A stretch of 64,000 nucleotides of DNA from Candidatus Saccharimonadales bacterium (GTDB lineage: Bacteria; Patescibacteriota; Saccharimonadia; Saccharimonadales; EFPC-124). The position numbers and the translations under genes were made by a program. Of this stretch, positions 2,959-24,886 are shown one piece after another. The DNA lies in NCBI GenBank assembly GCA_050730875.1, contig JBOHNX010000001.1, forward strand, positions 141,827 to 205,826, written 5' to 3'. The notes under the pieces are model-generated. The model was not told the origin of the DNA, did no database searches, and worked only from the letters and a program-made list of their open reading frames with translations. How positions within the stretch are numbered: position 1 is the first letter of the stretch; the number at the start of each line of letters is the position of its first letter.

Positions 2959-3873
2959 ATGTTCTGGCGAAAACAAAAAGAACCCGTTCGACAGCCACGG
3001 CTTATGGCCGGGCAAGATGATTACGTGTTTCGACGGAGCCGGACGCTAACGGGCAGCGTGTCGTCGCAGGTTACTGCAACGGCAGAAAAGCGCGGGCAAC
3101 TGAAGACCGACCGGTTAAAGTTGCACGAGCTAAAGGCGCATCGCCGGCATGTGCTGCGGCTGCTCGGCGTGGTTTTGCTGGCCTTGGGCGTGATGGTGTT
3201 TTTGCTTGCGAATTTTATTGTTTCACCACAGATTGCCAGTGCAGAACCAGGCGTTCGCCAGGCTGATGCTTCGAAGTACCACCAAGCTATTTACACGTAT
3301 TTTGGTGATCATCCGCTGGAGCGTTTTGGGTTTGCACTGAATGCCGAAGAGTTTCAGGAGCATCTTAAGCAGTCGCACGATGAGGTGCGTAGCGTAACGG
3401 TTGAGCGTGATTGGTATGGTGGTGACGTGCGTTTTATTTTGTATTTTCGGCAGCCGCTTTTGGTGTGGCGGAGTGCGGGCCAGCAGTTTTATGTAGATAA
3501 TCAGGGTGTTGCGTTTGACTACAATCATTTTGTTGAGCCGACGGTGGCGGTGGAGGACCAGTCCGGTATTACACCGGATCAAGCTTCGGGGGCAGTGGCG
3601 TCTACCCGATTCCTTGGTTTTTTGGGGCGTACGGTGGGTGCGATTAACTCCTATAACAAGGGTAAGGTCGTTGCGGTTATTATTCCGCGGTCGACTCGGC
3701 AAATTGATATTAAACTGGAGGGTCGCGATTATATTATTAAGACGCATATCGACCGCGATCCCCTGCAACAGGCTGAAGATATTGCTAATGCACTCAAGTA
3801 CTTCGATGTGCATGGTATTAAGCCGCAGTATGTTGATGTGCGGGTGGCGCACAAGGCGTTTTATAAGAATTAA
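2959..3873 (+). CDS. ftsQ: FtsQ/DivIB-like cell-division protein (single TM + POTRA-like domain)
   Basis: ORF 2917..3873; the Met at 2959 (MFWRKQ) is the more likely start. It has a TM helix (LLGVVLLALGVMVFLLANF) followed by a POTRA-like segment (VRSVTVERDWYGGDVRFILYFRQPLLVW...YVDNQGVAF). It lies after murG. Confidence 0.7.
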   Translation: MFWRKQKEPVRQPRLMAGQDDYVFRRSRTLTGSVSSQVTATAEKRGQLKTDRLKLHELKAHRRHVLRLLGVVLLALGVMVFLLANFIVSPQIASAEPGVRQADASKYHQAIYTYFGDHPLERFGFALNAEEFQEHLKQSHDEVRSVTVERDWYGGDVRFILYFRQPLLVWRSAGQQFYVDNQGVAFDYNHFVEPTVAVEDQSGITPDQASGAVASTRFLGFLGRTVGAINSYNKGKVVAVIIPRSTRQIDIKLEGRDYIIKTHIDRDPLQQAEDIANALKYFDVHGIKPQYVDVRVAHKAFYKN

Positions 3874-3888
3874 GCGGATGACCCGACC

Positions 3889-4023
3889 GCTGCTTTTCGT
3901 ACTATTCCTTCACAGAGCAAATGTGCCCGCTCTTCCTTAACCAACTGAAAGCCCTGAACTACAGGGTTTCAGTTGGTTACTCCAGAGCTACGATCCTCTG
4001 TGAAGGAATAGTACGAGCGCAGC
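3889..4023. repeat. 135-nt nested inverted repeat (rod-like hairpin)
   Basis: 3898-3917 is perfectly complementary to 3996-4015 (20 bp). The helix is extended by 3889-3893/4019-4023. An inner helix pairs 3929-3933 with 3984-3988. The innermost helix pairs 3938-3956 with 3962-3979 (18 bp, one bulge, 5-nt loop). Confidence 0.85.
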
Positions 4024-4305
4024 ATATCCTGGGGTATGCGGAAGAGGGTAGGGCGGAGGAGCTTTACTTACTAGGAGTCGCAAAGCTAAAAAGCCTACGG
4101 CATCACCCGCTCGATGGATAACTTATTGCTTGTGTTGATTAGCGGCAGAAGCAGACTACTCCGCTGCTCTCTTTTATGTTCTAATTTTGTTCTTGCTTTA
4201 AGTTATAGACCCACTCCAATATCGAAAAAACTATATAAAAATATTAAATTCAAAAAAAGCAAATAGTGTAGGGCGGAGGGTGGTAGGGAGTCGTGAAAAA
4301 ATATT

Positions 4306-4527
4306 ATGAAAATACAAAAAAGCAAATTTGCAAATGCGACTGTGGAAAAGTCAAATTACGACATGGCACGTTTTATGGGGTGCTGCCAGTCGGCTGGCGA
4401 CCTAAGCCGGTCGACAGTACAATACAAGTTTAAATGTAGCGGTGCGCGTAGTGTAATTACAGCCACATTAACGCCAAACTCCCGGAAAACTCCCCTAGTA
4501 AGACGATGTACCAATCATCTTCAGTAA
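4306..4527 (+). CDS. hypothetical small protein (very uncertain; alternative 46-codon GTG frame at 4293..4433)
   Basis: This is the only ORF of at least 60 aa in the 955-bp gap. GGAGG/GGGAG motifs lie upstream (4276-4290). A perfect 11-bp hairpin (4532-4542/4559-4569) follows the stop. No recognisable family. Confidence 0.2.
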   Translation: MKIQKSKFANATVEKSNYDMARFMGCCQSAGDLSRSTVQYKFKCSGARSVITATLTPNSRKTPLVRRCTNHLQ

Positions 4528-4828
4528 AATAATGTAATGTCGTAAAAGATATATTGTGCGACATTACATCTATATTAAACTATGTACACTTTCATCCATC
4601 TTCAGCCACCAATTTTCTTGTGTTTCGTCTATGATTTTTATGGCTCCTCATTCTTCTACTCGCCCGGGCTGCGTTCTCGCTTTAAACGAGTCATTATGGT
4701 TGTTTGATTACTTTATGTAGATTCATTTTGACTGCTAAACCAATTAACAGGGGTCGACCTCTATTATCGAGTATTCGATAGATTGTGTTCGTATTTTGTT
4801 CGTTTTATTTCTGTATGATTATTACTCC

Positions 4829-7525
4829 CTAGCGTAAGCGAAGTACAAAGTCGTTGTCTTGTTGCTCTTGTTGGGGCTGCGGCTGTTGCTGTTGTGGAGT
4901 GGGGTTTTGAGTCTTAGAACCGCCTCGTTTGCGTCCGCGCGAACGGGAACGCTTGCCGCTACCTGGCGTTGCTTGCTGGCCTGATTGTTGCTGTGGAGCG
5001 GCTGGTGCGGGCTGTGGGGGCTTTTGCGTTTGAGCGGCGGGCGCTGTTGTGGGTTGTTTTGATGGTGGCTGTGTCTGTGGGGCAGTAAATCGACCAGACG
5101 CGGCGGGGATGAGAGTTTGTTTAATCACCTTCTGAATTTCGGCCTCAACTTCTGCCCGAGGTCGCGAGTAATGGCGACGTGTGTTTTCGATAATCTGCGG
5201 CGAGTAGTCATTTTGCGCGGCTGGGAGGGTTAGGGTGGTTGCAGAGAACGCCGGTGCCTTCTCTCCCCTAATGACCATGCTAATGACAAAATGTCGGTTG
5301 TGCATTTGCATGAGGTCAGCGGCTTCAAACTGCGGTTCGAACTGCTTAGAAAGCAGTGGCGCATCGTCGGGGCTGACCCGGAAGGAAATGACAGTACCAA
5401 CGTTCCCGAATACGGCATCGCGTACGGTATCGTTCATCTGTGAAATATATTGGTTGGCTACAGTTAGGTTAAGGCCGTATTTACGTGCCTCACTTAAGAT
5501 AGTTGCAAACGAATCGGTCGCGAAGTTTTGGAATTCGTCCACGTACAGGTAGAACGGCTTGCGATCTTCGATGTGCGGAATATCAGAACGGCTCATGGCG
5601 GCCAGCTGGATTTTGGTTACTAGGAACGAGCCCAGCACGGCGGCGTTGTCTTCCCCTACTAACCCTTTGCTCAGGTTCACGATCAAAATTTTGCCTTCGT
5701 CCATGATTTTACGGATGTTAAAAGTGCTTTTTGGCTGGCCAATGATGTTACGGATGATTGGATTAGCAGTAAAGGCACCCACCTTGTTAAGCACTGGGGC
5801 AATGGCTTCGGCAGCGAATTTATCGTTCCAGCTCGCAAATTCTACCGTCCAGAACTGGCGCACTACGGCGTCATCGACATATGTTAGGACCTCGTTGCGG
5901 AACTTTTTATCGGTGAGCATGCGGGTGATATCGAGTAGTGTTGTGTTTGGATAATCCAAAAGCGCTAAGATTGTGTAGCGCAAGATGTATTCCAAACGTG
6001 GCCCCCAACTTTCGCCGAACATGCGTTTTAGGACACCAATAATTTCAGAACTAATATTGTTCTTCATGGCTGGATTGATGACTTCCATCGGGTTGAAGCC
6101 AATCGGGTATGCTGTGTCTGCTGGGTTAAAGTAGATCACATCCTTGGCGCGCGACTGAGGGATAAACCGCAGGTTGTTAATGGCAAAGTCGCCATGTGGA
6201 TCGATAATGGCGAAACCGTGGTTATGGAAGACGTCGCTGAGTGCAAACAGCTCCAACAGACCAGATTTACCAGTACCGGTTTGGCCAATGATATACACGT
6301 GACGGCCGCGGTCTGAACGGTACAGGCCAAATTGCTGGTTAATCCCGCGGAAGTTCGTTAGACCGAACGCACTTATTTCGGCATCGGCCTCGACACCGAT
6401 GACAACTGGCAGTTTTGCAGGTGGTTCGGCTGTTTTTGAGCTTGCCCAGACGATGTTCGGTGTCTCCACGTTGGTGTGTGGTAAGTGGAAGACACTGGCG
6501 AGCTCTTCGATATTTAAAATGTAGCCGCGATCAATAAAGAACCGCGCACGATATTGCGCCAGGCCGTCGGGCGAGAACGAAGAGTTCTTCATCTGGAAGC
6601 CATTCAGGTTCGTACTGTTGAACTGTTTGAACGTACCAACAATCGCTTGCATGCGCAGTCGGGCGGTTTGTTGGCTGTTACCCAAATACGTCAGCCGTAT
6701 TTTTACTTGGTAGCCTAATTTAATGCTCTTCTTCTCTACTTCGGTGATCCGGCCTTTTTCGCGTTCGCTAATTTCTGCCGGGCCACTGCTGCCTTGATTT
6801 TCTGGTGGTTTCCAGAGAGCTTCAAGCGCACGCAGCAAATAATAGCCAAGACCACCGCCGAGGGCAGCACTACTGCTCCCTCCCCCACTCTTCGCACGGG
6901 CTGTGTAGCGACTGGCTTTGCGGTGCCAGTCATCCGAAATTGGGCGCGCCAATACCTGAATCCACATTTCTTCGCCGGTTTCTTCGAGTTTGGCTAGTGT
7001 AGCGGTCACGGCTGCTAAGGGGTCAACCTCGAAGCTCTGGAATGTTTTAATCGGTAGCACTTCGTTATCGATTAATGAAAGTTCAGCGGTATGCACAACC
7101 TGCTGTTTGATATCGCGAGCTGCGTAATCTTCTTCTGCAACATGAATCTGCACAGTTGGATATTGCGCGTAAATTTGGCCTTCAACAAAGTTTTGCAGGT
7201 ATGTCGGCACCCATACGTAAAAGCGTATGCGTTTGTCGATGGCGGCGATTTCAAAGCTGATGTGTTCCTGCAAGCCGCCCTGCGTGGCAAGCTCACGCTT
7301 CGAGCGCAAAATACCGTGCAAACTGGCGAACATTTGCTCGGCTGCCAGTTCTTGCTTCTCGTTTGTACGAGGGATCTCGAGGATTAATAGGGTGTGGTCA
7401 AGATCACGAACCACCTTAGCTCGACGGTTGTTCCGAAGGGCTAAGTAACCAAGGACTGCGGCGATTGGCAGCCAGATGTACCACTTGCTCAGCAAGCCGA
7501 AAATCAACGAGAGCACCACGTCCAT
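4829..7525 (-). CDS. membrane-anchored VirD4/TraG/TraD-like (FtsK-HerA superfamily) ATPase with P/Q-rich C-terminal tail
   Basis: 898 aa. N-terminal TM helix. Walker A YIIGQTGTGKSG. Walker B-like FYLYVDEFQNF. Coupling-protein-like LNLTVANQYISQ. The last ~110 aa are low-complexity P/Q/G/R. Confidence 0.75.
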   Translation of the reverse strand: MDVVLSLIFGLLSKWYIWLPIAAVLGYLALRNNRRAKVVRDLDHTLLILEIPRTNEKQELAAEQMFASLHGILRSKRELATQGGLQEHISFEIAAIDKRIRFYVWVPTYLQNFVEGQIYAQYPTVQIHVAEEDYAARDIKQQVVHTAELSLIDNEVLPIKTFQSFEVDPLAAVTATLAKLEETGEEMWIQVLARPISDDWHRKASRYTARAKSGGGSSSAALGGGLGYYLLRALEALWKPPENQGSSGPAEISEREKGRITEVEKKSIKLGYQVKIRLTYLGNSQQTARLRMQAIVGTFKQFNSTNLNGFQMKNSSFSPDGLAQYRARFFIDRGYILNIEELASVFHLPHTNVETPNIVWASSKTAEPPAKLPVVIGVEADAEISAFGLTNFRGINQQFGLYRSDRGRHVYIIGQTGTGKSGLLELFALSDVFHNHGFAIIDPHGDFAINNLRFIPQSRAKDVIYFNPADTAYPIGFNPMEVINPAMKNNISSEIIGVLKRMFGESWGPRLEYILRYTILALLDYPNTTLLDITRMLTDKKFRNEVLTYVDDAVVRQFWTVEFASWNDKFAAEAIAPVLNKVGAFTANPIIRNIIGQPKSTFNIRKIMDEGKILIVNLSKGLVGEDNAAVLGSFLVTKIQLAAMSRSDIPHIEDRKPFYLYVDEFQNFATDSFATILSEARKYGLNLTVANQYISQMNDTVRDAVFGNVGTVISFRVSPDDAPLLSKQFEPQFEAADLMQMHNRHFVISMVIRGEKAPAFSATTLTLPAAQNDYSPQIIENTRRHYSRPRAEVEAEIQKVIKQTLIPAASGRFTAPQTQPPSKQPTTAPAAQTQKPPQPAPAAPQQQSGQQATPGSGKRSRSRGRKRGGSKTQNPTPQQQQPQPQQEQQDNDFVLRLR

Positions 7526-7597: not shown

Positions 7598-8647
7598 CTA
7601 TTCTTTGTCTTCTTCTGCCAGTGCATATGTCGCCTTAGCCACCCGCTTAAAGCGCTGTTTGCCCTGGAGGTTGAGCAAGATAGTCGTTTCTTTCACCTGA
7701 CGGTGCTTGAGGACTCGACGAACAATTTCATCACGGTGCAATGGACCACCCTCTTTTTTGAGGATGTCGGTAATGATGTCGGCAACGGTACCCTTCTTAA
7801 AGCCCCAATCCTTGAGTGCGTAAATACCACGGCCAATCAACACAAAACGGCTGTCTTTAATGAGCTCGTTGTGAATAGCCTGGGTTGTAACATCTTTACG
7901 GCGGAAATCAGACTCTTTAATTGACTTCGCGATGTCGCTAAAGTGCATTGGTTTACCGTTTTCTTGTAGGACAACAAAAATTTTGTCGCGGATGTTTTTA
8001 GGGTTAACGGTTGGCCATTTAGTCAGACCCCAGTGGTCCTTAAGGTTGGCAAGCTCTTTGCTAACCTGTGCGAGCGCGCGGACGTGCGACGGGTGGTCGT
8101 GGTCAAGTTTTTGGTGCAGCTGCTCGATTGTCAGCGGTTCACCTTCTTTTTTGATGGTGCCGACAATGCTATCGACGTGCTTCTTGATTTGTGGTTCGTC
8201 GTGATATTCCTTAATGCCTACCGAGTGGTGGTAGCGGTCGCTTTCCTCGACGACAGTTAGGCGCGGTGCTAGTTCGGCAACAAATGCCACGTGAGCACGG
8301 TCGCGCTCGCTTGGCGCTTTGGCGATACGGGCTGCAAGGTCAGATACTTTGGCAACACGGCCAAGGTCATGCAAGTGACGGATAAGGTGTTTTTCGAGAG
8401 TGGTAATGTGTGGCAAGCTCTCTTCCGCGGCCAGTTTTAGGCGGATCATAATTGCCTTTTCCAGCTGGCGCACACGTTCGCGAGTAATACCAAGAAGCTC
8501 ACCAATTTGCTCGAGTGTTTCTTTGCGGTCGTACAAACCAAAACGACGCGCAATGATTTCGCGCTCTCGCTCTCGTTCTACTGTAATAAGGATATCCTTA
8601 ACAGCTGACTGTAAATCCACCGTCGCCGCTTCAGCGGTATCGCTCAT
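7598..8647 (-). CDS. sigma-70 region-4-like HTH protein fused to two HARE-HTH-like domains
   Basis: The segment REIIARRFGLYDRKETLEQIGELLGITRERVRQLEKAIMIRLK resembles sigma70 region 4. Two C-terminal modules end in DSRFVLIGRGIYALKDWG and QRFKRVAKATYALAEE, like the RpoE-delta HARE-HTH. The Met at 8647 has a GGAAAGG RBS (the ORF track starts at 8689). Confidence 0.6.
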   Translation of the reverse strand: MSDTAEAATVDLQSAVKDILITVEREREREIIARRFGLYDRKETLEQIGELLGITRERVRQLEKAIMIRLKLAAEESLPHITTLEKHLIRHLHDLGRVAKVSDLAARIAKAPSERDRAHVAFVAELAPRLTVVEESDRYHHSVGIKEYHDEPQIKKHVDSIVGTIKKEGEPLTIEQLHQKLDHDHPSHVRALAQVSKELANLKDHWGLTKWPTVNPKNIRDKIFVVLQENGKPMHFSDIAKSIKESDFRRKDVTTQAIHNELIKDSRFVLIGRGIYALKDWGFKKGTVADIITDILKKEGGPLHRDEIVRRVLKHRQVKETTILLNLQGKQRFKRVAKATYALAEEDKE

Positions 8648-8841
8648 ATAACTAACCTTTCCGGGGTTATTTTTTGCCTCAATGTTCATATTACTCTAAC
8701 ACAAATTACTATTGGTGTCAAATAACGAGGGTATAAGTTAATTATAGCATCAACTCGACGTTTTAGGTAGTCTCTGATGTGACAGTTTATAACTGTGGAT
8801 AAATAGTATAAGCGTAAGAGGTATGTAGGAAAATTATATAG

Positions 8842-9253
8842 AAAACGGGCTCTCGCGGTTGCAAGAGCCCTTATGGAGGGATGGCACCGGCCTAGGAAAC
8901 GCAGGCGGGCTCGGTCTCCCGAGGTGCGTACATCTAGGCCGGTGCCTGGCGTCGGCTGCAGTCTCCCTCAAGCCTGCCGACGCCGCGGTTCTCGTCGTCC
9001 CAATGGGCCCGAACATGACGAGAACCAGTGAGGCTGCCCATGAGTCCCCCCAGGCCCCAAGACAACCTCACGAAAGGACCACGCCGCAACGCTCGGGGGT
9101 GCAGCTGCGGCGTGGTCCAGCCTTTAGCCCACCGTAGCGCGCCGCGTCCCTGGGGAGGCCGTGCCTTCCGGATGAAGGTACGTCGCGTACGCTACGGTGG
9201 GGGCTTGTATCATTCGGCTGATTGCAGCCGAACAAGTTCACTATTAAGGTGTA
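8842..9253. ncRNA. unassigned GC-rich highly structured element (candidate ncRNA, strand unresolved)
   Basis: Seven or more long helices: 8883-8895/8934-8946, 8948-8956/8976-8984, 8987-8998/9015-9026, 9028-9033/9066-9071, 9076-9087/9107-9118, 9128-9139/9190-9201 and 9161-9168/9174-9181. A possible pseudoknot pairs 9048-9054 with 9149-9155. Two G.U pairs favour the + strand. A promoter (TTGATG-17-TATTAT, 9260-9288) and a terminator hairpin with U run (8847-8870) favour the - strand. No credible ORF. Confidence 0.55.
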
Positions 9254-9301: not shown

Positions 9302-11602
9302 TTATTTGCGGGTGCGACGAGAACGAGCACTCTTGGCTGGCGCTTTGGCGAGGAGTTCTTTGCATTGCGCTAATGTGAGTTGCGCTGGTTCGATGTCTTT
9401 TGGCACTTTGACATTCTTTTTGCCATCGGTGATGTAAGGACCAAAGCGGCCGTTGAGGACTCTAATCCCCTCTTCACTGAAGTCGTGGATGGTCATTTTG
9501 GCACGTTTTTCGGCGTCTTCGGCTAAGAGCTGTTTAGCGGTTGCAAGGTCTATGGTCAGAGGGTCGTGCCCCTTAATTGAGACGTAACGTTTAGCGACGC
9601 GAACGTATGGTCCGAAACGACCAATGTTAGCCTCGATTTCTTCGTTGTTGTCGGTCAGGCCAACGACTCGGGGCAATTTAAGCAATTCGAGTGCTTGTTC
9701 GAGCGTAATTGTGTCGAGTGAGATTTCGGGCGGAATGGTAGCGAAGGTTGGTTTTTCTTCCTCCTCAGCTTCCCCTACCTGTACCATGGGGCCGTAGCGG
9801 CCAAAGCGGGCAGATACTTTACGACCGGTTTTGGGATCGGTACCAAGGGTTCGAGATTGCATAGCCTCGGCACGACTGACGCCTTCAGACTTTTCGACTG
9901 TTTTATGGAATGGGTCGTAGAATTCTTTAAGCATTTGCTGCCACGCTAGTTTGCCATCGGCGATGCCATCGAACTCTTCTTCGACTGTTGCGGTGAAGTC
10001 GTAGTCGATGATGTGTGGGAAGTGCAGTACCAAGAAGTCGGTTACGACTTTGCCGATGTCGGTGGGTACTAACTTGCCCTTATCGGTAGGAATTGGCTCC
10101 ATGGCCTGCTTGCGCTCAACTGCGCTAGCAGCTAGTGACAGGCGCACCACTTCCCGCTCGCCGCCAACGACGTCGGCTTTTTCAACATAGCCGCGATCTT
10201 GGATGGTGCTGATAGTTGGCGCGTAGGTACTTGGACGTCCAATGCCGAGTTCTTCGAGTTTGCGTACCAGGCTAGCTTCGGTGTAACGTGCGGGTGCCCT
10301 GGCGTAGGTCTGTTCGGCTTCGGCACTAACCAAATTGAGTTTGTCGCCGGTTTTTACCTCTGGCAATAAGCCTTCTTCTTTGGCTTCTTTACCTTCGGCA
10401 TAGACTTTTAAGAAACCGGGGAATTCGACAATCTCGCCCTTGGCTTCCAGCACGTCTTTGCTTTCGCTTAGGCCAATGGTGATAGTAGTTTTTTCGATCT
10501 TGGCTGGCGCCATTTGCGATGCGACGCTGCGCTTCCAAATAAGTTCGTAGAGTTTTTGTTGCTGGGCGTCATCGCCGGCTTGGCGGACGCTGGCGTTAGT
10601 GGGGCGAATAGCTTCGTGAGCTTCTTGGGCGCCGGCACTTTTGGTCGTGAATTTTCGGGTTTGCAGGTAGTTTTCGCCATACTCTTTTTTAATGAGCTCG
10701 GCCATAGCGCCAATTGCCAGGCTGCTGAGGTTAACCGAGTCGGTACGCATGTAGGTGATGTGACCATTTTCGTACAAGCGCTGTGCGAGCATCATAGTTT
10801 GCTTTGGTGAAAAACCAAGTCGGCGCGATGCTTCTTGTTGCAGTGTGCTGGTGGTAAACGGTGCGCTTGGGCTGCGCGTACCAGGCGTTTTTTCAACGTT
10901 GGCGATGCTGCATTCGCTCTTAACAAGTGCTTCGAGGAATGCCTGAGCTTCTGCCTCGCTTTCGTATTTAACCGGTGCCTCTGCTTTCAATTCCGTGCCG
11001 TCTTCAAGTGTCAGAAGTGCATTTACTTTAAAGCTGGTCTTGGCTTCGAAACCTTCAATCTCGCGTTCGCGCTCAACAATTAAACGCACTGCCACAGATT
11101 GCACACGGCCAGCGCTTAAACCTGTGCGGACTTTTTTCCAGAGGACCGGGCTCAGTTCGTACCCCACAATGCGGTCTAAAATACGACGCGCTTGTTGCGC
11201 GTCTACTAATTTAAGGTCAATGCTGCGAGGATTCTTTACCGCCGCTTCGATTGCCGGTTTGGTAATTTCATGAAAGACAATGCGCTTTGTGTTTTCGGGT
11301 TTGAGCTTCAGCGCTTCGCTTAAATGCCAAGCAATTGCTTCCCCTTCGCGGTCTTCATCGCTTGCGAGCCAGATGATATCGGCAGTTTTAGCTGCAGCGC
11401 GCAGTTCGGCAACCGTTTTCTTTTTATCTGGGCTTACTTCGTACTTTGGTTCGAAATTATTGGCGATATCAACGCTCATCCCCTTTTTAGGAAGGTCGCG
11501 GATGTGCCCAAAGCTGCTTTTAACGACAAAATCCTTGCCTAAATACTTGGCAATGGTTTTGGCTTTGGCCGGTGACTCTACAATGACTAGGTTCTTGCTC
11601 AT
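9302..11602 (-). CDS. topA: DNA topoisomerase I
   Basis: Toprim start MSKNLVIVESPAKAKTI...GHIRDLP. Also has SDEDREGEAI, a catalytic-region YITYMRTDS motif, and a C-terminal repeated RFGPY module. The likely start is 11602 (the ORF track starts at 11656). Confidence 0.95.
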   Translation of the reverse strand: MSKNLVIVESPAKAKTIAKYLGKDFVVKSSFGHIRDLPKKGMSVDIANNFEPKYEVSPDKKKTVAELRAAAKTADIIWLASDEDREGEAIAWHLSEALKLKPENTKRIVFHEITKPAIEAAVKNPRSIDLKLVDAQQARRILDRIVGYELSPVLWKKVRTGLSAGRVQSVAVRLIVEREREIEGFEAKTSFKVNALLTLEDGTELKAEAPVKYESEAEAQAFLEALVKSECSIANVEKTPGTRSPSAPFTTSTLQQEASRRLGFSPKQTMMLAQRLYENGHITYMRTDSVNLSSLAIGAMAELIKKEYGENYLQTRKFTTKSAGAQEAHEAIRPTNASVRQAGDDAQQQKLYELIWKRSVASQMAPAKIEKTTITIGLSESKDVLEAKGEIVEFPGFLKVYAEGKEAKEEGLLPEVKTGDKLNLVSAEAEQTYARAPARYTEASLVRKLEELGIGRPSTYAPTISTIQDRGYVEKADVVGGEREVVRLSLAASAVERKQAMEPIPTDKGKLVPTDIGKVVTDFLVLHFPHIIDYDFTATVEEEFDGIADGKLAWQQMLKEFYDPFHKTVEKSEGVSRAEAMQSRTLGTDPKTGRKVSARFGRYGPMVQVGEAEEEEKPTFATIPPEISLDTITLEQALELLKLPRVVGLTDNNEEIEANIGRFGPYVRVAKRYVSIKGHDPLTIDLATAKQLLAEDAEKRAKMTIHDFSEEGIRVLNGRFGPYITDGKKNVKVPKDIEPAQLTLAQCKELLAKAPAKSARSRRTRK

Positions 11603-11698
11603 GCTTGTTCGTTGGTTTCGATGCCTTATGGTACTGACTGTTCTATAAGAATGCAAGTAAGTTTTTATGAAAACTGTAAGATATTAGCGACATAGGTC

Positions 11699-11727
11699 TT
11701 GACAGCTTATGGTTAAAAGAGTATAAA
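11699..11727 (+). promoter_or_regulatory. near-consensus sigma70 promoter (TTGACA-17 nt-TATAAA)
   Basis: The -35 TTGACA is at 11699-11704 and the -10 TATAAA is at 11722-11727, with a 17-nt spacer. Confidence 0.6.
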
Positions 11728-11733
11728 ACTAAG

Positions 11734-12066
11734 ACAGCCGGAGTATATGTAGGACCTACATACACTCCGCGAACCTCTCGTTTGCGCTCTCCCTCGCGCA
11801 GGCGAAAACAAACATCCTCTCTATGGAAGAAGGCGGTCATGGACCCGGGTTTGGAGGGTTTCCTCCGACAAACAATGAATGGTAGTTGGCTTTTCAACAA
11901 ACCGACTACGCCTTCCCCTACTACTCCCACCGACGAGCCACCCACTCGCCAGCCCACTCGTCCTCAGGATGGGGTTCGGGCGGGCGGCCCACGTCGACTC
12001 ATCGCGTGGTGAGGAGCCCGGTTGGGGTGGAGTTCTTCATTGGACTCCACCCTGCCGGGTTTTTTA
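11734..12066 (+). ncRNA. orphan ~330-nt transcription unit: structured RNA or mRNA for a 57-aa P/T-rich peptide
   Basis: Promoter at 11699-11727. Strong intrinsic terminator at 12017-12059 followed by T6. Hairpins at 11740-11753/11755-11768 and 11882-11889/11902-11909 (the latter has a U.G pair valid only on +). C-rich tract at 11910-11965. A possible ORF at 11839..12012 has a weak AAGG RBS. Confidence 0.5.
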
Positions 12067-12148
12067 TTTGCAAGGATAAGCATTTATTGACACCTTGGCC
12101 AACCAGGAGTAAACCATAGATACTACAGCAGCGACCAGGAGTATACAC

Positions 12149-12415
12149 GTGGAAGAAGACGGCTATAACGGCAACCCAGTTTGGACAGAAGCAACTATTG
12201 AGCCCCCGAAAGGACAAGCGATGTACGATATGGTGGCAGATGCATGCCACGGAAACCGACGCAGCAATGGTGAGGTACGGTTTGACATTTTCGATGAAAA
12301 AGGGTGTGAAGTGAGAGGCTTTTGTTTAAGGGCACTTAAGTCAGCGGCACGATTTATAGATGAGAAACCTAAGGCTCATTCGGAGATTCTCCGGCGAGAG
12401 CATCGCAGATACTAA
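12149..12415 (+). CDS. hypothetical protein (88 aa, GTG start)
   Basis: An AGGAG RBS lies 7 nt upstream of the GTG. No recognisable domain. Its 3' end overlaps the dprA stop by 4 nt (convergent). Confidence 0.4.
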   Translation: MEEDGYNGNPVWTEATIEPPKGQAMYDMVADACHGNRRSNGEVRFDIFDEKGCEVRGFCLRALKSAARFIDEKPKAHSEILRREHRRY

Positions 12416-13272
12416 CGCAGCGTCCACTGGTTGCCACCCAACGCGCGGATTTTGCCAGTTACCTCTAGCATAGTGAGTGTTTGACTGAATGCTGCTGGCG
12501 TGAGTTTGCTTTGCACCTGTAGCTCTATTCCGTCACGTGTGCCGCTGGCAATCAAGGTAAGAATTGCTTGTTCTTCGGCGGTATTGCCTATTGGTAGTGT
12601 CGCCTGATTTTTTGGTTCGGTTAAACCAAGCTCGTGCAAGATGTCGCTGACGTCGGTTATTGGCCGGGCGCCCATTTTTATCAGGTTATTACAGCCTTCG
12701 CTCATGGGATTGGTAATGTTGCCGGGCACGGCCATGACCGGCTTACCCTGTTCTAGTGCAAACCCGGCAGTGTGCATGGTGCCGCTTTTGGCGGCAGCCT
12801 CTACGACAAGTAAACCATCGCTAATGCCAGATACAATGCGATTACGGGCTATGAAGTTAGCAGGATAAGTCGTGGTGCCTGGCTCGTATTCGCTTAAAAG
12901 CGCGCCGCCGCTTTCCATGATGCGCTGAGCCAACTTGCGATGAGATGCGGGGTAAATTTCGGTTACACTGCTTGGTAAAACCGCTATTGTTGTACCGCCG
13001 GCATCGAGCGCTGCTTGGTGGGCAATGGCATCGATACCGAGGGCTAACCCACTGACAACTACGACTCCCCTGCTCGCTAGCTCATACGCTAGCCGGTAGC
13101 CAATCTCTTTGCCGTACGGACTTGGTCTGCGGGTGCCAACAATTGCAATGGTTGGAATTCGGGTTTGAGGTAATTTTCCCAACAACCATAATCTTTTTGG
13201 ATAATTTGCAATATTTTTTGTAATCTGGAGAAATTCACTCTCATCTGGCGTTGTTTTATTGATTTTATGCAT
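12412..13272 (-). CDS. dprA: DNA processing protein DprA (Smf)
   Basis: DprA Rossmann-like core: VVSGLALGIDAIAHQAALDAGGTTIAVLPSS...SGGALLSEY...FIARNRIVSG. Confidence 0.9.
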   Translation of the reverse strand: MHKINKTTPDESEFLQITKNIANYPKRLWLLGKLPQTRIPTIAIVGTRRPSPYGKEIGYRLAYELASRGVVVVSGLALGIDAIAHQAALDAGGTTIAVLPSSVTEIYPASHRKLAQRIMESGGALLSEYEPGTTTYPANFIARNRIVSGISDGLLVVEAAAKSGTMHTAGFALEQGKPVMAVPGNITNPMSEGCNNLIKMGARPITDVSDILHELGLTEPKNQATLPIGNTAEEQAILTLIASGTRDGIELQVQSKLTPAAFSQTLTMLEVTGKIRALGGNQWTLR

Positions 13273-13290: not shown

Positions 13291-13319
13291 TTGACACAAA
13301 CGAGCAGAAATGTTAAATT
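13291..13319 (+). promoter_or_regulatory. sigma70-type promoter (TTGACA-17 nt-TAAATT with TGT extended -10)
   Basis: TTGACA at 13291-13296 and TAAATT at 13314-13319. It is divergent from dprA. Confidence 0.55.
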
Positions 13320-13325
13320 ATCGCA

Positions 13326-13618
13326 TGGTGAACCTTTAAGAGGTTTCATCGCACCTTATACCCCCAAATTCTAACATTTACTACTTCGGTAGTGAATAGA
13401 GTTAGATTGCATGCAACGTGCGTCTTAAAGTTTCTACCCTCCACTTTAATCGCATCTTGATCTGAAATAAGATCATCAACATGCGTTGCGTGCAAACTAA
13501 TCCCTTTAACCGGCGGACCTCTTGTATTTTGTGAGGTGGGTCACGCTAATGCCCGAACGGGTGGGTTGAAGGGTAAAACGGCGCCAGGTGATGCCCACCC
13601 TTACCTGGCGCCTTTTTA
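13326..13618 (+). ncRNA. orphan ~290-nt structured RNA, unassigned
   Basis: Bounded by a promoter at 13291-13319 and a terminator at 13580-13589/13603-13612 plus T5. A 13-14 bp helix (13408-13421/13483-13496) has three U.G/G.U pairs that are valid only on +. It encloses two hairpins, giving a 3-way junction. A UUCG-capped hairpin lies at about 13366-13406. No ORF. Confidence 0.6.
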
Positions 13619-13634
13619 TTTGGACTAGTCTTAG

Positions 13635-13663
13635 TTGACAAAAGTGCAATTAATTGATATAGT
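13635..13663 (+). promoter_or_regulatory. consensus-like sigma70 promoter (TTGACA-17 nt-TATAGT)
   Basis: TTGACA at 13635-13640 and TATAGT at 13658-13663. It lies upstream of CDS 13758. Confidence 0.6.
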
Positions 13664-13757: not shown

Positions 13758-14060
13758 ATGTCTGTCCAACTCCAGAAGCTTGCATTCAAGCTGGCCATCG
13801 GTTTTAGCCTGATGGTTTCGATGGCGATCTTCCTGCTGGTCTTCTCCCGCCTTCTGCACTGGAGCGTTGTGTGGGTGATCACTATCTTTGTGACCGTGCT
13901 TTTCGTCGGCGCCTATATTTTCTTCGCCGCCGTGGTGGAGGTTGCAGCTCGCCTGCGCTTCAATCCGGAGATGTTCGAAAAGAGGTCAAAAACTGATCTA
14001 TGCACCGGGTACGGCGGGCGCAGAGCTCATCTCCTCTGTCTCCCGCAACTAGAATTCTGA
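13758..14060 (+). CDS. small membrane protein (2 predicted TM helices)
   Basis: 100-aa ORF with a GAGGAG RBS 7 nt upstream. Two long hydrophobic segments. It has its own promoter. Confidence 0.6.
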   Translation: MSVQLQKLAFKLAIGFSLMVSMAIFLLVFSRLLHWSVVWVITIFVTVLFVGAYIFFAAVVEVAARLRFNPEMFEKRSKTDLCTGYGGRRAHLLCLPQLEF

Positions 14061-14639: not shown

Positions 14640-15960
14640 CTCGCCTTCCCTTCTCTTCGCGGAAACTGAACTTTATTGTTGTGCCAGTGTAATCGAACCG
14701 TTCGCGCATGGCGCGTTCTAAGTAGCGTTTGTAAGACCAGTGCAAATAGCGCAGGTTGCTGCCAAATACTACAAACCACGGTGGATTTGTGTCGGTTTGC
14801 ACCATGTAACGCAGCTTGGGGTGCGTATTTTTGAGGCCAGCTGGTGGATGGCTGTGGACGCACTGTTGCAGGATTTTGTTGAGCTCGGCAGTTTTGAGTT
14901 CTTGGCGGCGGCGTTCGTCAATTTCGGATGCAAGGTCGAAAATTTTAGCGACGTTTTGTCCGGTCACGGCGCTGGTGAAAATAAGTGGCGCCCATGGCAC
15001 ATGCTGGAAGTCAAAATGCAGTTTCTTGGCGATTTCATCGCGCGAGTACGGCGTTTTGTCGTCGAGTGTGTCCCATTTGCTTATAACGATCACGATACCT
15101 TTGCCGGCTTCTTTAATAATGCCGGCGATTTTTTGGTCGAGGGCGGTGCTGAGCTCGTTCACGTCCATCAAAAGTAAACAAATGTCAGCTTGCTCGATGG
15201 CTTGCAGGCTACGCAGGACGCTGAATTTTTCGATGCCGACTTCAATTTTGCCGCTACGGCGGATACCGGCAGTGTCGAGCAGTTCTACATCGCGTTGATG
15301 GTAGCGCACACGCACGCGGTTTACATCGCGCGTGGTGCCCGCAACATCGGCCACAATTGCTTGCTGCTTGCCAGCCAAAGTGTTAAATAAGTACGATTTA
15401 CCGACGTTTGGGCGGCCGATCAGCGCAATGCGTAGAACATTGTCGTCCGGGATATCTTTTTTAGATGGAACGTCGGCTGCGATAGCTTCTAACAGTTCAT
15501 CTACGCCAGTGCTGTGCTCGGCTGAGGTACGGTAAATGTGCTTAATGCCGAGTTTCAAAAAGTCTTCGGTTGGCAGCGCGTCGGCTTTGTCGGTTTTGTT
15601 AAGCACCAGCTTAACCACCTTTTTAGATTTGAGCGCTTTTTTAGCAACGGTGCGGTCTTGGTCGGTCACCATGGTGGTGGCATCGACCACAACTAAAATA
15701 AGGTCAGCGGCGGCGCTGGCCTCTTCAATCTGTTCTTGAATGGTTGCTTCAAACTGGTCTTCGGGGTCCTTTAGACCCGCGGTGTCGACCAGCCAGAAGT
15801 TACGATCTTTAAAACCAACTTTACCAACCACCGGGTCGCGGGTAGTACCAGCTTCACGCGCAACAATCGCCTGCTGGTAGCCAACAAGGCGGTTAAACAA
15901 GCTAGATTTGCCAACGTTGGTCTGGCCAACAATAGCGACGGTCGGAAGTCGTTTACTCAT
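14614..15960 (-). CDS. der: ribosome-associated GTPase Der/EngA (two GTPase domains + KH-like)
   Basis: Two G-domains: [16 protein letters not shown]...DTAG, and [15 protein letters not shown]...DTAG...SKWD. Confidence 0.95.
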
Positions 15961-24713: not shown

Positions 24714-24886
24714 AGTAATTCAGTGAACTCCACCCTGCCTCCATTTGCAAGCTTAATTACTTTTATTGTACGTTTTACATACCTCTTCGTAAAGCTTATG
24801 CTACGGGCTAGTCCCGCGCTTTTCTTTTATCCTCTATAAGCTCCCGCAGTCGTATTTTGGAAACTGCTCTCGGTATTGTTCCGCTG

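Follow-up and report, generated by a model that had tools for sequence, protein, structure and literature searches.

An orphan promoter-to-terminator cassette beside topA in a Saccharibacteria genome: a lineage-specific small RNA candidate

Small RNAs (sRNAs) of the RsaE/RoxS type in Gram-positive bacteria are C-rich and base-pair in trans with G-rich, Shine-Dalgarno-like sequences. For Saccharibacteria, no validated sRNA had been reported as of a 2022 preprint (10.1101/2022.03.25.485537). Two further systems are close in layout to the locus described here: (i) leader open reading frames (ORFs) coupled to a terminator, where terminators a few bp after a translated gene are described as strongly repressed (PMC4824070), and (ii) clusters of hairpins between operons (PMC8355165). 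Here, we analyze a promoter-to-terminator cassette in a 64,000-nucleotide stretch (“the window”; contig JBOHNX010000001.1) from a metagenome-assembled genome of Candidatus Saccharimonadales (Saccharibacteria/TM7, candidate phyla radiation [CPR]), for which an identical Logan contig exists. The cassette sits in an 810-bp spacer with topA (9302-11602) on one side and dprA (12412-13272) on the other, both on the minus strand; the spacer also holds an 88-codon ORF on the plus strand (Table 1).

Judged from its sequence, the cassette is a real, autonomous, species- or lineage-specific transcription unit that would be transcribed from a start at about 11734-11736 into an RNA of ~330 nt. It is an intergenic sRNA-like gene and not a new class. 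Non-coding RNA is better supported as the probable product than a micro-protein, and we tentatively favor the reading in which this autonomous unit yields an RNA that most probably does not code for protein or is translated weakly at best.

The first line of evidence is the promoter. The pattern TTGACA-N17-TAWAWW has two matches in the window against 0.08 expected; one is the cassette promoter and the other is the promoter of a conserved non-coding RNA (ncRNA) 1.6 kb away. The final T of the -10 hexamer is near-invariant in promoters of this type. Because the cassette’s TATAAA lacks it, the promoter is absent from the consensus-scan list, and what had been called a textbook promoter has the expected hexamers and spacing but is not fully textbook.

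The second line of evidence is the fold. The whole ~330-nt unit has a minimum free energy (MFE) of -147.7 kcal/mol with a z score of -5.2, and of -6.65 against shuffles in a separate calibration. Since 71 genomic background windows of equal size have a mean z of only -0.47 (standard deviation 1.33), the whole cassette is an outlier. Hairpin H1 reaches z -4.65, with none of 200 shuffles equally stable, hairpin H2 z -4.5, and the terminator, whose stem spans 12016-12060 at -37.1 kcal/mol, z -8.7. The two 15-nt arms of H1 are 93% complementary and fold into 12 Watson-Crick pairs and one A·C mismatch. The plus strand of the cassette is slightly more stable than the minus strand, and the respective counts of G-U pairs are 13 and 9.

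An earlier note on this DNA had placed a hairpin at the 5' end of the transcript and a strong terminator followed by six T residues at its other end, and both were found. The note had also described GGAGG/CCUCC hairpins within a structured RNA. The GGAGGGUUUCCUCC hairpin is indeed there, but the structure signal comes from the 5' hairpins and the terminator, and the C-rich middle is not significant. Apart from this hairpin, the central domain contains a second one (11882-11909), the unpaired C-rich tract and a long imperfect hairpin (11931-11996). The weak pairing proposed for the C-rich stretch 11910-11965 holds for 11916-11930, but 11931-11965 pairs with the G-rich segment 11967-11996 in the long imperfect hairpin. 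Taken together, the C-rich loop of H2 and the tract have unpaired probabilities of 0.7-1.0.

The note’s proposal of a self-contained unit outside known families also stands. A covariance search against Rfam 15 assigned the cassette to no family at gathering thresholds (riboswitches, T-box, 6S, RNase P, SRP, RsaE and RybB included), and even at E ≤ 10 the single match was to RybB, in the terminator part only (16.4 bits against a threshold of 40; E 3.7). The three tRNAs that ARAGORN found in the window lie outside the cassette, and it found no transfer-messenger RNA (tmRNA); a tmRNA reading was therefore rejected.

Nor does the cassette have detectable homologs. A search of related genomes with blastn, which the note had suggested, and with nhmmer returned no similarity to the RNA in 80 TopA-anchored genome loci. 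Among species-level genome representatives, the best TopA identity is only 55-61%, while the closest TopA proteins in a large protein collection are 78-82% identical. Six loci of the closest relatives were obtained through TopA, and these too contain nothing similar to the RNA. BLAST against phages and plasmids and two pattern scans of viral contigs were empty. One scan of JGI metagenomes with a 19-nt C-rich seed gave a lone 20-nt identity (L088 705-724; Ga0308195_1001278), which we attribute to chance since its flanks are unrelated. Even two relatives with 92% identical TopA share only 59% of third codon positions; the closest relatives of the window’s genome are beyond synonymous-site saturation, and weakly constrained DNA would therefore be unalignable. 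The cassette has no second copy within the 64 kb examined, and a REP/MITE-like mini-element was rejected on this basis. A 26-nt similarity between the terminator and 24714-24739 was dismissed (no hairpin there; BLAST E 0.019), as was paralogy with the units at 8845-9215, 3880-4110 and 13291-13625, for which alignment scores were no better than those of shuffles.

Under the reading we favor, the strong σ70-type promoter would start the ~330-nt RNA and the very strong intrinsic terminator would end it. The two stable 5' hairpins would protect the RNA from 5'-end-dependent decay, and the loosely folded middle would expose the C-rich H2 loop UCUCCCUC and the tract CCCUACUACUCCCAC, a candidate seed. 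If the RNA is functional, its likeliest role would be trans base-pairing with G-rich, Shine-Dalgarno-like sequences, as for RsaE/RoxS, and by this analogy the cassette is possibly a C-rich base-pairing sRNA. It would lack recognizable relatives because the slot beside the topA promoter turns over very quickly in this clade. In line with this reading, the cassette shares its promoter class with the neighboring conserved ncRNA, which shows an invariant CCCUCC loop as well. Of the generic features of a stand-alone sRNA gene, an own σ70 promoter and a Rho-independent terminator in an intergenic region are present, while conservation and covariation were not found in the genomes and collections searched.

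Several observations weigh against this reading. No homolog turned up in any collection searched, so that neither covariation nor conservation lends it support. The central 205 nt, which hold the C-rich tract and the ORF, are marginally more stable than shuffles but not significantly structured (z -1.96; 8 of 200 shuffles equally stable). At -31.4 kcal/mol, the best duplexes of the C-rich tract within the window are no stronger than those that shuffled seeds form (-27.6 to -34.5), and the whole RNA paired with neighboring translation-initiation regions no better than shuffles did. As is typical of genes, the 57-codon ORF within the cassette ends shortly ahead of the terminator, with 3 nt between its stop codon and the stem, and its Shine-Dalgarno-like GAAGG (-7.1 kcal/mol) ranks in the top quarter for genes. 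Finally, the positional counterparts of the cassette in relatives are protein-coding.

These counterparts occupy a slot between dprA and topA. In the window, the cassette promoter stands back to back with the inferred topA promoter (PtopA), with 42 bp between the two -35 hexamers; in relatives, PtopA has a conserved counterpart, TTGCAA-17-TACGAT. A strong divergent promoter, TTGAC(A/G)-17/18-TAnnnn, lies 7-45 bp from the -35 of PtopA in four relatives (L082, L084, L085 and L089) and in the window, and is the only recurring element of the slot. What follows it differs wholly: the slot holds either unrelated ORFs of 105-187 aa divergent from topA or a spacer of 66 or 226 nt, and in L081 and L090 the divergent ORF is missing. 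Relatives’ slot sequences are not unusually structured (z +1.2 to -3.0, reaching -4.2 where the 3' terminator is included); the window’s cassette therefore differs from them in kind.

The spacer in the window appears to have its own history of rearrangement. A 20-bp direct repeat of the dprA 3' end (12118-12137 and 12407-12426; 17 of 20 positions identical), whose copies give WSLL* and WTLR* when translated in the dprA direction, flanks a 289-bp segment with the 88-aa ORF. This segment looks like the footprint of an insertion or duplication at the dprA end. In addition, the start of the 88-aa ORF shares a 13-nt repeat with the sequence immediately preceding ATG 11839, and the extended alignment (11824-11906 with 12150-12260) is marginal (p ~0.04). 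The spacer thus looks like the product of repeated local duplication and insertion.

There are two ways in which the product of the cassette could be irrelevant: the cassette may be no more than neutral debris left by turnover in a hypervariable spacer that grew through local duplications, or selection may act on divergent transcription at PtopA, with the terminator confining it. The wholly different slot contents, the recurrence of the strong promoter next to PtopA in four relatives and the window, and the several short direct repeats, which suggest growth of the spacer through duplication, all fit such an explanation. So do the weakly paralogous sequences at 11824-11906 and at the beginning of the 88-aa ORF, as well as the presence of other hairpin-rich, gene-free spacers around topA in the clade, whose sequence is not conserved. 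However, selection would probably be needed for a 19-bp terminator, a near-consensus promoter and two near-perfect hairpins at the 5' end to arise or persist. Moreover, L081 and L090 have no divergent unit at all, and such a unit is therefore dispensable for topA. On balance, an irrelevant product is less likely than not but a substantial possibility.

The next explanation takes the cassette as an mRNA in which a structured 5' untranslated region (UTR) of ~100 nt precedes a 57-aa, P/T-rich protein, the local version of the fast-evolving slot gene of relatives. The ORF that the earlier note had reported is present, with its stop just ahead of the terminator, and the order of elements is canonical: promoter, UTR, a Shine-Dalgarno-like GAAGG better than that of 75% of genes, ATG, and a stop near the terminator. 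The note’s statement that no gene is annotated here is only partly true, since one public gene call (Logan) includes both the 57-aa ORF and the neighboring 88-aa ORF. In five of seven relatives, a promoter-driven ORF of 105-187 aa matches in position and orientation. These ORFs also score low in this genome’s coding model (-0.10 to +0.05), and two of them (L082 and L084) share 40% amino acid identity where their TopA proteins are 92% identical. At such speed of evolution, undetectable homology is to be expected, and the word-indexed protein search overlooked even the true 40%-identical homolog of a relative’s slot protein. Within the 57-codon ORF, the in-frame coding scores are the best among the three frames.

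The coding statistics nevertheless argue against a protein. Owing to the high C and low A and T content of the stretch, each of the three plus-strand frames stays open for 66-77 codons, and ORF length is therefore uninformative. The 3-periodic Markov coding score of the 57-aa ORF is -0.118; only 2.9% of real-gene windows score equally low, whereas 25% of spurious ORFs score equally high. Its codon log-odds (-0.07 per codon) fall below the 5th percentile of real-gene windows, and GC at codon position 2 is 0.61 compared with 0.40 in genes. Opening the initiation region (-15 to +12) would cost 11.7 kcal/mol, a higher value than for 98% of the 44 real genes compared (median 6.7), so that the ribosome-binding site is predicted to be occluded. 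The AlphaFold model of the peptide is one short helix plus coil (pTM 0.18), and the product is predicted to be disordered; the predicted structures for the 57-aa and 88-aa products are both of low confidence.

Homology searches with the peptide, another of the note’s suggestions, found none. The 76-aa version of the ORF matched only itself in the word-indexed search of 5.8 billion proteins, and Pfam, PHROGs, NCBIfam and PADLOC gave zero matches for any ORF of the spacer. A comparison with the 162-178-aa ORFs of relatives by tblastn, blastp and hhalign gave nothing significant (profile probability <1% in hhalign), and the idea that the 57-aa ORF is a pseudogene of the relatives’ gene was rejected; the best local match is NGSWLF against NGSLWFGS at a similar N-terminal position. 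Of the features expected of a small-protein gene, gene-like coding statistics, an accessible ribosome-binding site, and a homolog or a foldable product were not found, while the Shine-Dalgarno-like sequence is present and the test is not absolute. Thus, the ORF proposed for the micro-protein exists, but its coding score, occluded initiation region, lack of homologs and disorder disfavor the product, and we consider the mRNA reading unlikely.

The layout also invites a model in which the cassette is a cis-acting leader (attenuator) of the 88-aa ORF, found on the same strand 83 nt downstream; the terminator would be conditional, with read-through to this ORF. The 88-aa ORF has a good Shine-Dalgarno sequence; its initiation region opens at 5.4 kcal/mol and is accessible, frame discrimination is strong, and the promoter-like site ahead of it has only a weak -10 (TAAACC). 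A full HMMER search of its product against 1.84 billion representatives returned only itself and one low-complexity match, and nothing was found in viral contigs. Read-through would be triggered either by a ribosome finishing the 57-codon ORF, which on stopping 3 nt before the stem would cover the terminator base, or by the C-rich tract holding the 5' arm. In transcripts truncated before the 3' arm, the 5' arm of the terminator (12020-12034) is predicted to pair with the C-rich tract at 11921-11932 (-18 kcal/mol), and in such a model the tract could act as an antiterminator. This pairing is weak, however, and is far outweighed by the terminator (-37 kcal/mol, 19 bp, T6). The upstream ORF’s own ribosome-binding site is predicted to be occluded, and the cassette matched none of the known riboswitch or leader families. 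The perfect TTGACA (17-nt spacing) that stands between the terminator and the 88-aa ORF argues that the terminator separates two units. Furthermore, the 88-aa segment between the 20-bp repeats looks like a later insertion, and its linkage with the cassette may therefore be recent. On balance, we consider a leader function improbable.

Less probable still is a reading in which the conserved thing is the strong promoter back to back with PtopA (7-45 bp, five lineages): the cassette would be a disposable “transcription load” that feeds negative supercoils into a supercoiling-sensitive topA promoter, the terminator would bound the domain, and the RNA would be free to drift, which would explain its extreme turnover. 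In type III toxin-antitoxin systems, tandem repeats of ~36 nt lie upstream of a terminator and a toxin gene; a ToxI-like system was rejected, as the sole tandem repeat has a 12-nt unit in 2.1 copies and neither PADLOC nor Pfam gave a match for the 88-aa ORF.

The second TTGACA-N17-TAWAWW match belongs to a stand-alone ncRNA candidate of ~300 nt, divergent from dprA, which looks more interesting than the topA-side cassette. Relatives with saturated synonymous sites share 75-94% identity in this RNA, and more distant copies occur in L001, L002, L004, L005, L046 and L051. Among the close relatives, 12 of 96 predicted pairs show compensatory double changes, and covariation of the core helices extends to distant Saccharibacteria (CG<->UA in 6 of 13, for instance). 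Four motifs are invariant: GUUAGAUUG, UACCCUCCAC (a hairpin loop), ACUAACCCCUUUAAC and GGGUGGGUUGAAGGGU. A pseudoknot may form between the terminator loop GCCCACCC and its complement GGGUGGGU. Rfam gave no match for the RNA at E ≤ 10, nor is it a tmRNA. Directly after its terminator lie a promoter (TTGACA-17-TATAGT, 13635-13663) and a 100-aa orphan ORF (13758-14060, plus strand), a layout of RNA unit, terminator, promoter and small ORF that mirrors the cassette.

Downstream of topA, the gene-free spacer is GC-rich (64-71%) and holds about seven abutting hairpins (370 nt, MFE -220 kcal/mol, z -8.3). Folding favors the topA-sense strand of this array by 22 kcal/mol, and this strand forms twice as many G-U pairs as the other; the array ends in a terminator and may have a promoter (TTGATG-17-TATTAT), and Rfam gave no match. 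Every relative examined has such an array, 600-1750 nt long, with z -3.6 to -10.6 compared with about -1 for topA coding controls. Except for the 110-150 nt adjoining the sigma gene, the sequence is not conserved; structure and position are conserved without sequence conservation. In L085, the array contains an internal duplication of ~740 nt in which the stems are kept and the loops differ.

Another gene-free spacer of ~950 nt (3873-4829) precedes a TraG/VirD4-like ATPase gene and has no Rfam match. It contains a very long, near-perfect inverted repeat (~3889-4025; z -6.65 for a 334-nt window) and, adjoining A/T-rich repeats, two copies of the G-rich GTAGGGCGGAGG (~4050-4061 and ~4270-4281). 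Among the ~44 gene starts in the window, many lack a Shine-Dalgarno sequence and have a -10-like TAnnnT only 4-10 nt ahead of the ATG, as in the genes starting at 15960(-), 31180(-), 40727(-), 23770(-) and 8689(-), and only about a quarter of the genes have a strong Shine-Dalgarno sequence. This pattern suggests widespread leaderless mRNAs in this genome.

Table 1. Features of the cassette, its spacer and the related loci. Positions are those of the window, or of the relative’s locus where an L number is given.
Feature	Position	Strand	Details
σ70-type promoter	11699-11727	+	TTGACA 11699-11704, 17-nt spacer, TATAAA 11722-11727; read from sequence
5'-terminal hairpin H1, CCGGAGUAUAUGUAGG / CCUACAUACACUCCG	11737-11770	+	Inverted repeat 11739-11769; pairing probability ~1
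Hairpin H2	11778-11805	+	10-bp stem; C-rich 8-nt loop UCUCCCUC at 11788-11795
Central domain	11811-12015	+	MFE and pair probabilities; closed by weak long-range helix 11815-11827/12002-12015
57-codon ATG ORF, P/T-rich	11839-12012	+	TGA 12010-12012; part of 76-codon open frame from TTG 11782
GGAGGGUUUCCUCC hairpin	11851-11868	+	Read from sequence
C-rich tract CCCUACUACUCCCAC	11916-11930	+	Predicted single-stranded; unpaired probability 0.7-0.9
Intrinsic terminator	12016-12065	+	Terminator scan; 19 pairs (7+12), 6-nt loop, T6 12060-12065
Inferred topA promoter	11628-11656	-	TTGCAT-17-TACCAT; back to back with cassette promoter
Possible second promoter	12087-12115	+	TTGACA-17-TAAACC; poor -10, ahead of 88-aa ORF
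88-aa orphan ORF	12149-12415	+	AGGAG Shine-Dalgarno, GTG start; overlaps dprA stop by 4 nt
Slot ORFs of relatives	L082 3290-3811, L084 3267-3803, L085 3298-3786, L089 2513-2830	-	Promoter-driven orphans without Pfam domain
ncRNA candidate, ~300 nt, stand-alone	13291-13625	+	Divergent from dprA; promoter TTGACA-17-TAAATT, terminator 13574-13618
ncRNA counterparts	L081 2740-3062, L082 2028-2350, L084 2010-2330, L085 2010-2330, L090 1575-1895, L089 1195-1515	-	
Hairpin array downstream of topA	~9288-8841	-	Between topA stop (9302) and sigma-70 gene (7598-8689)
Array counterparts	L081 6308-7065, L082 6305-7793, L085 6302-8046, L089 5302-5980, L090 5293-6263		

If transcribed as predicted, the cassette is a lineage-specific sRNA candidate in Saccharibacteria, epibionts with reduced genomes within the CPR. 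As a single-genome orphan without comparative support, it is of limited value by itself. It marks, however, a hypervariable slot beside the topA promoter, and it led to a conserved, covarying RNA family of ~300 nt outside Rfam and to position-conserved hairpin arrays downstream of topA. These neighbors are better entry points to the RNA biology of the phylum than the cassette.

Compared with known systems, the cassette resembles the RsaE/RoxS-type sRNAs of Gram-positive bacteria in that it is stand-alone and intergenic, with its own promoter and intrinsic terminator, and in that its unpaired motifs UCUCCCUC and CCCUACUACUCCCAC could pair with G-rich Shine-Dalgarno regions. Unlike these sRNAs, it is ~330 nt long, roughly three times their length, and has no sequence or structure homology in Rfam, no conserved motif copies and no predicted targets above chance in the window. 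It shares with translation-coupled or leader-ORF attenuators (pyrBI-like logic; PMC4824070) an ORF that ends 3 nt before the terminator stem, a following ORF on the same strand and an alternative pairing for the 5' arm of the terminator. In contrast to them, its terminator is much stronger than that pairing and is followed by a promoter-like site, regulatory codon logic is lacking and the arrangement is not conserved.

Within the window, it resembles the ncRNA at 13291-13625, with which it shares the TTGACA-17-TAWAWW promoter, a similar length, an intrinsic terminator, a C-rich loop and a second promoter followed by a small ORF; unlike that RNA, with its 75-94% identity and compensatory changes, the cassette shows no sequence similarity to that RNA or to anything else. 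The cassette differs from inter-operon hairpin clusters (PMC8355165) in having its own promoter, only three strong hairpins and a weakly structured middle. As a series of consecutive stable hairpins in a gene-free spacer, however, it is like these clusters, as are the arrays downstream of topA.

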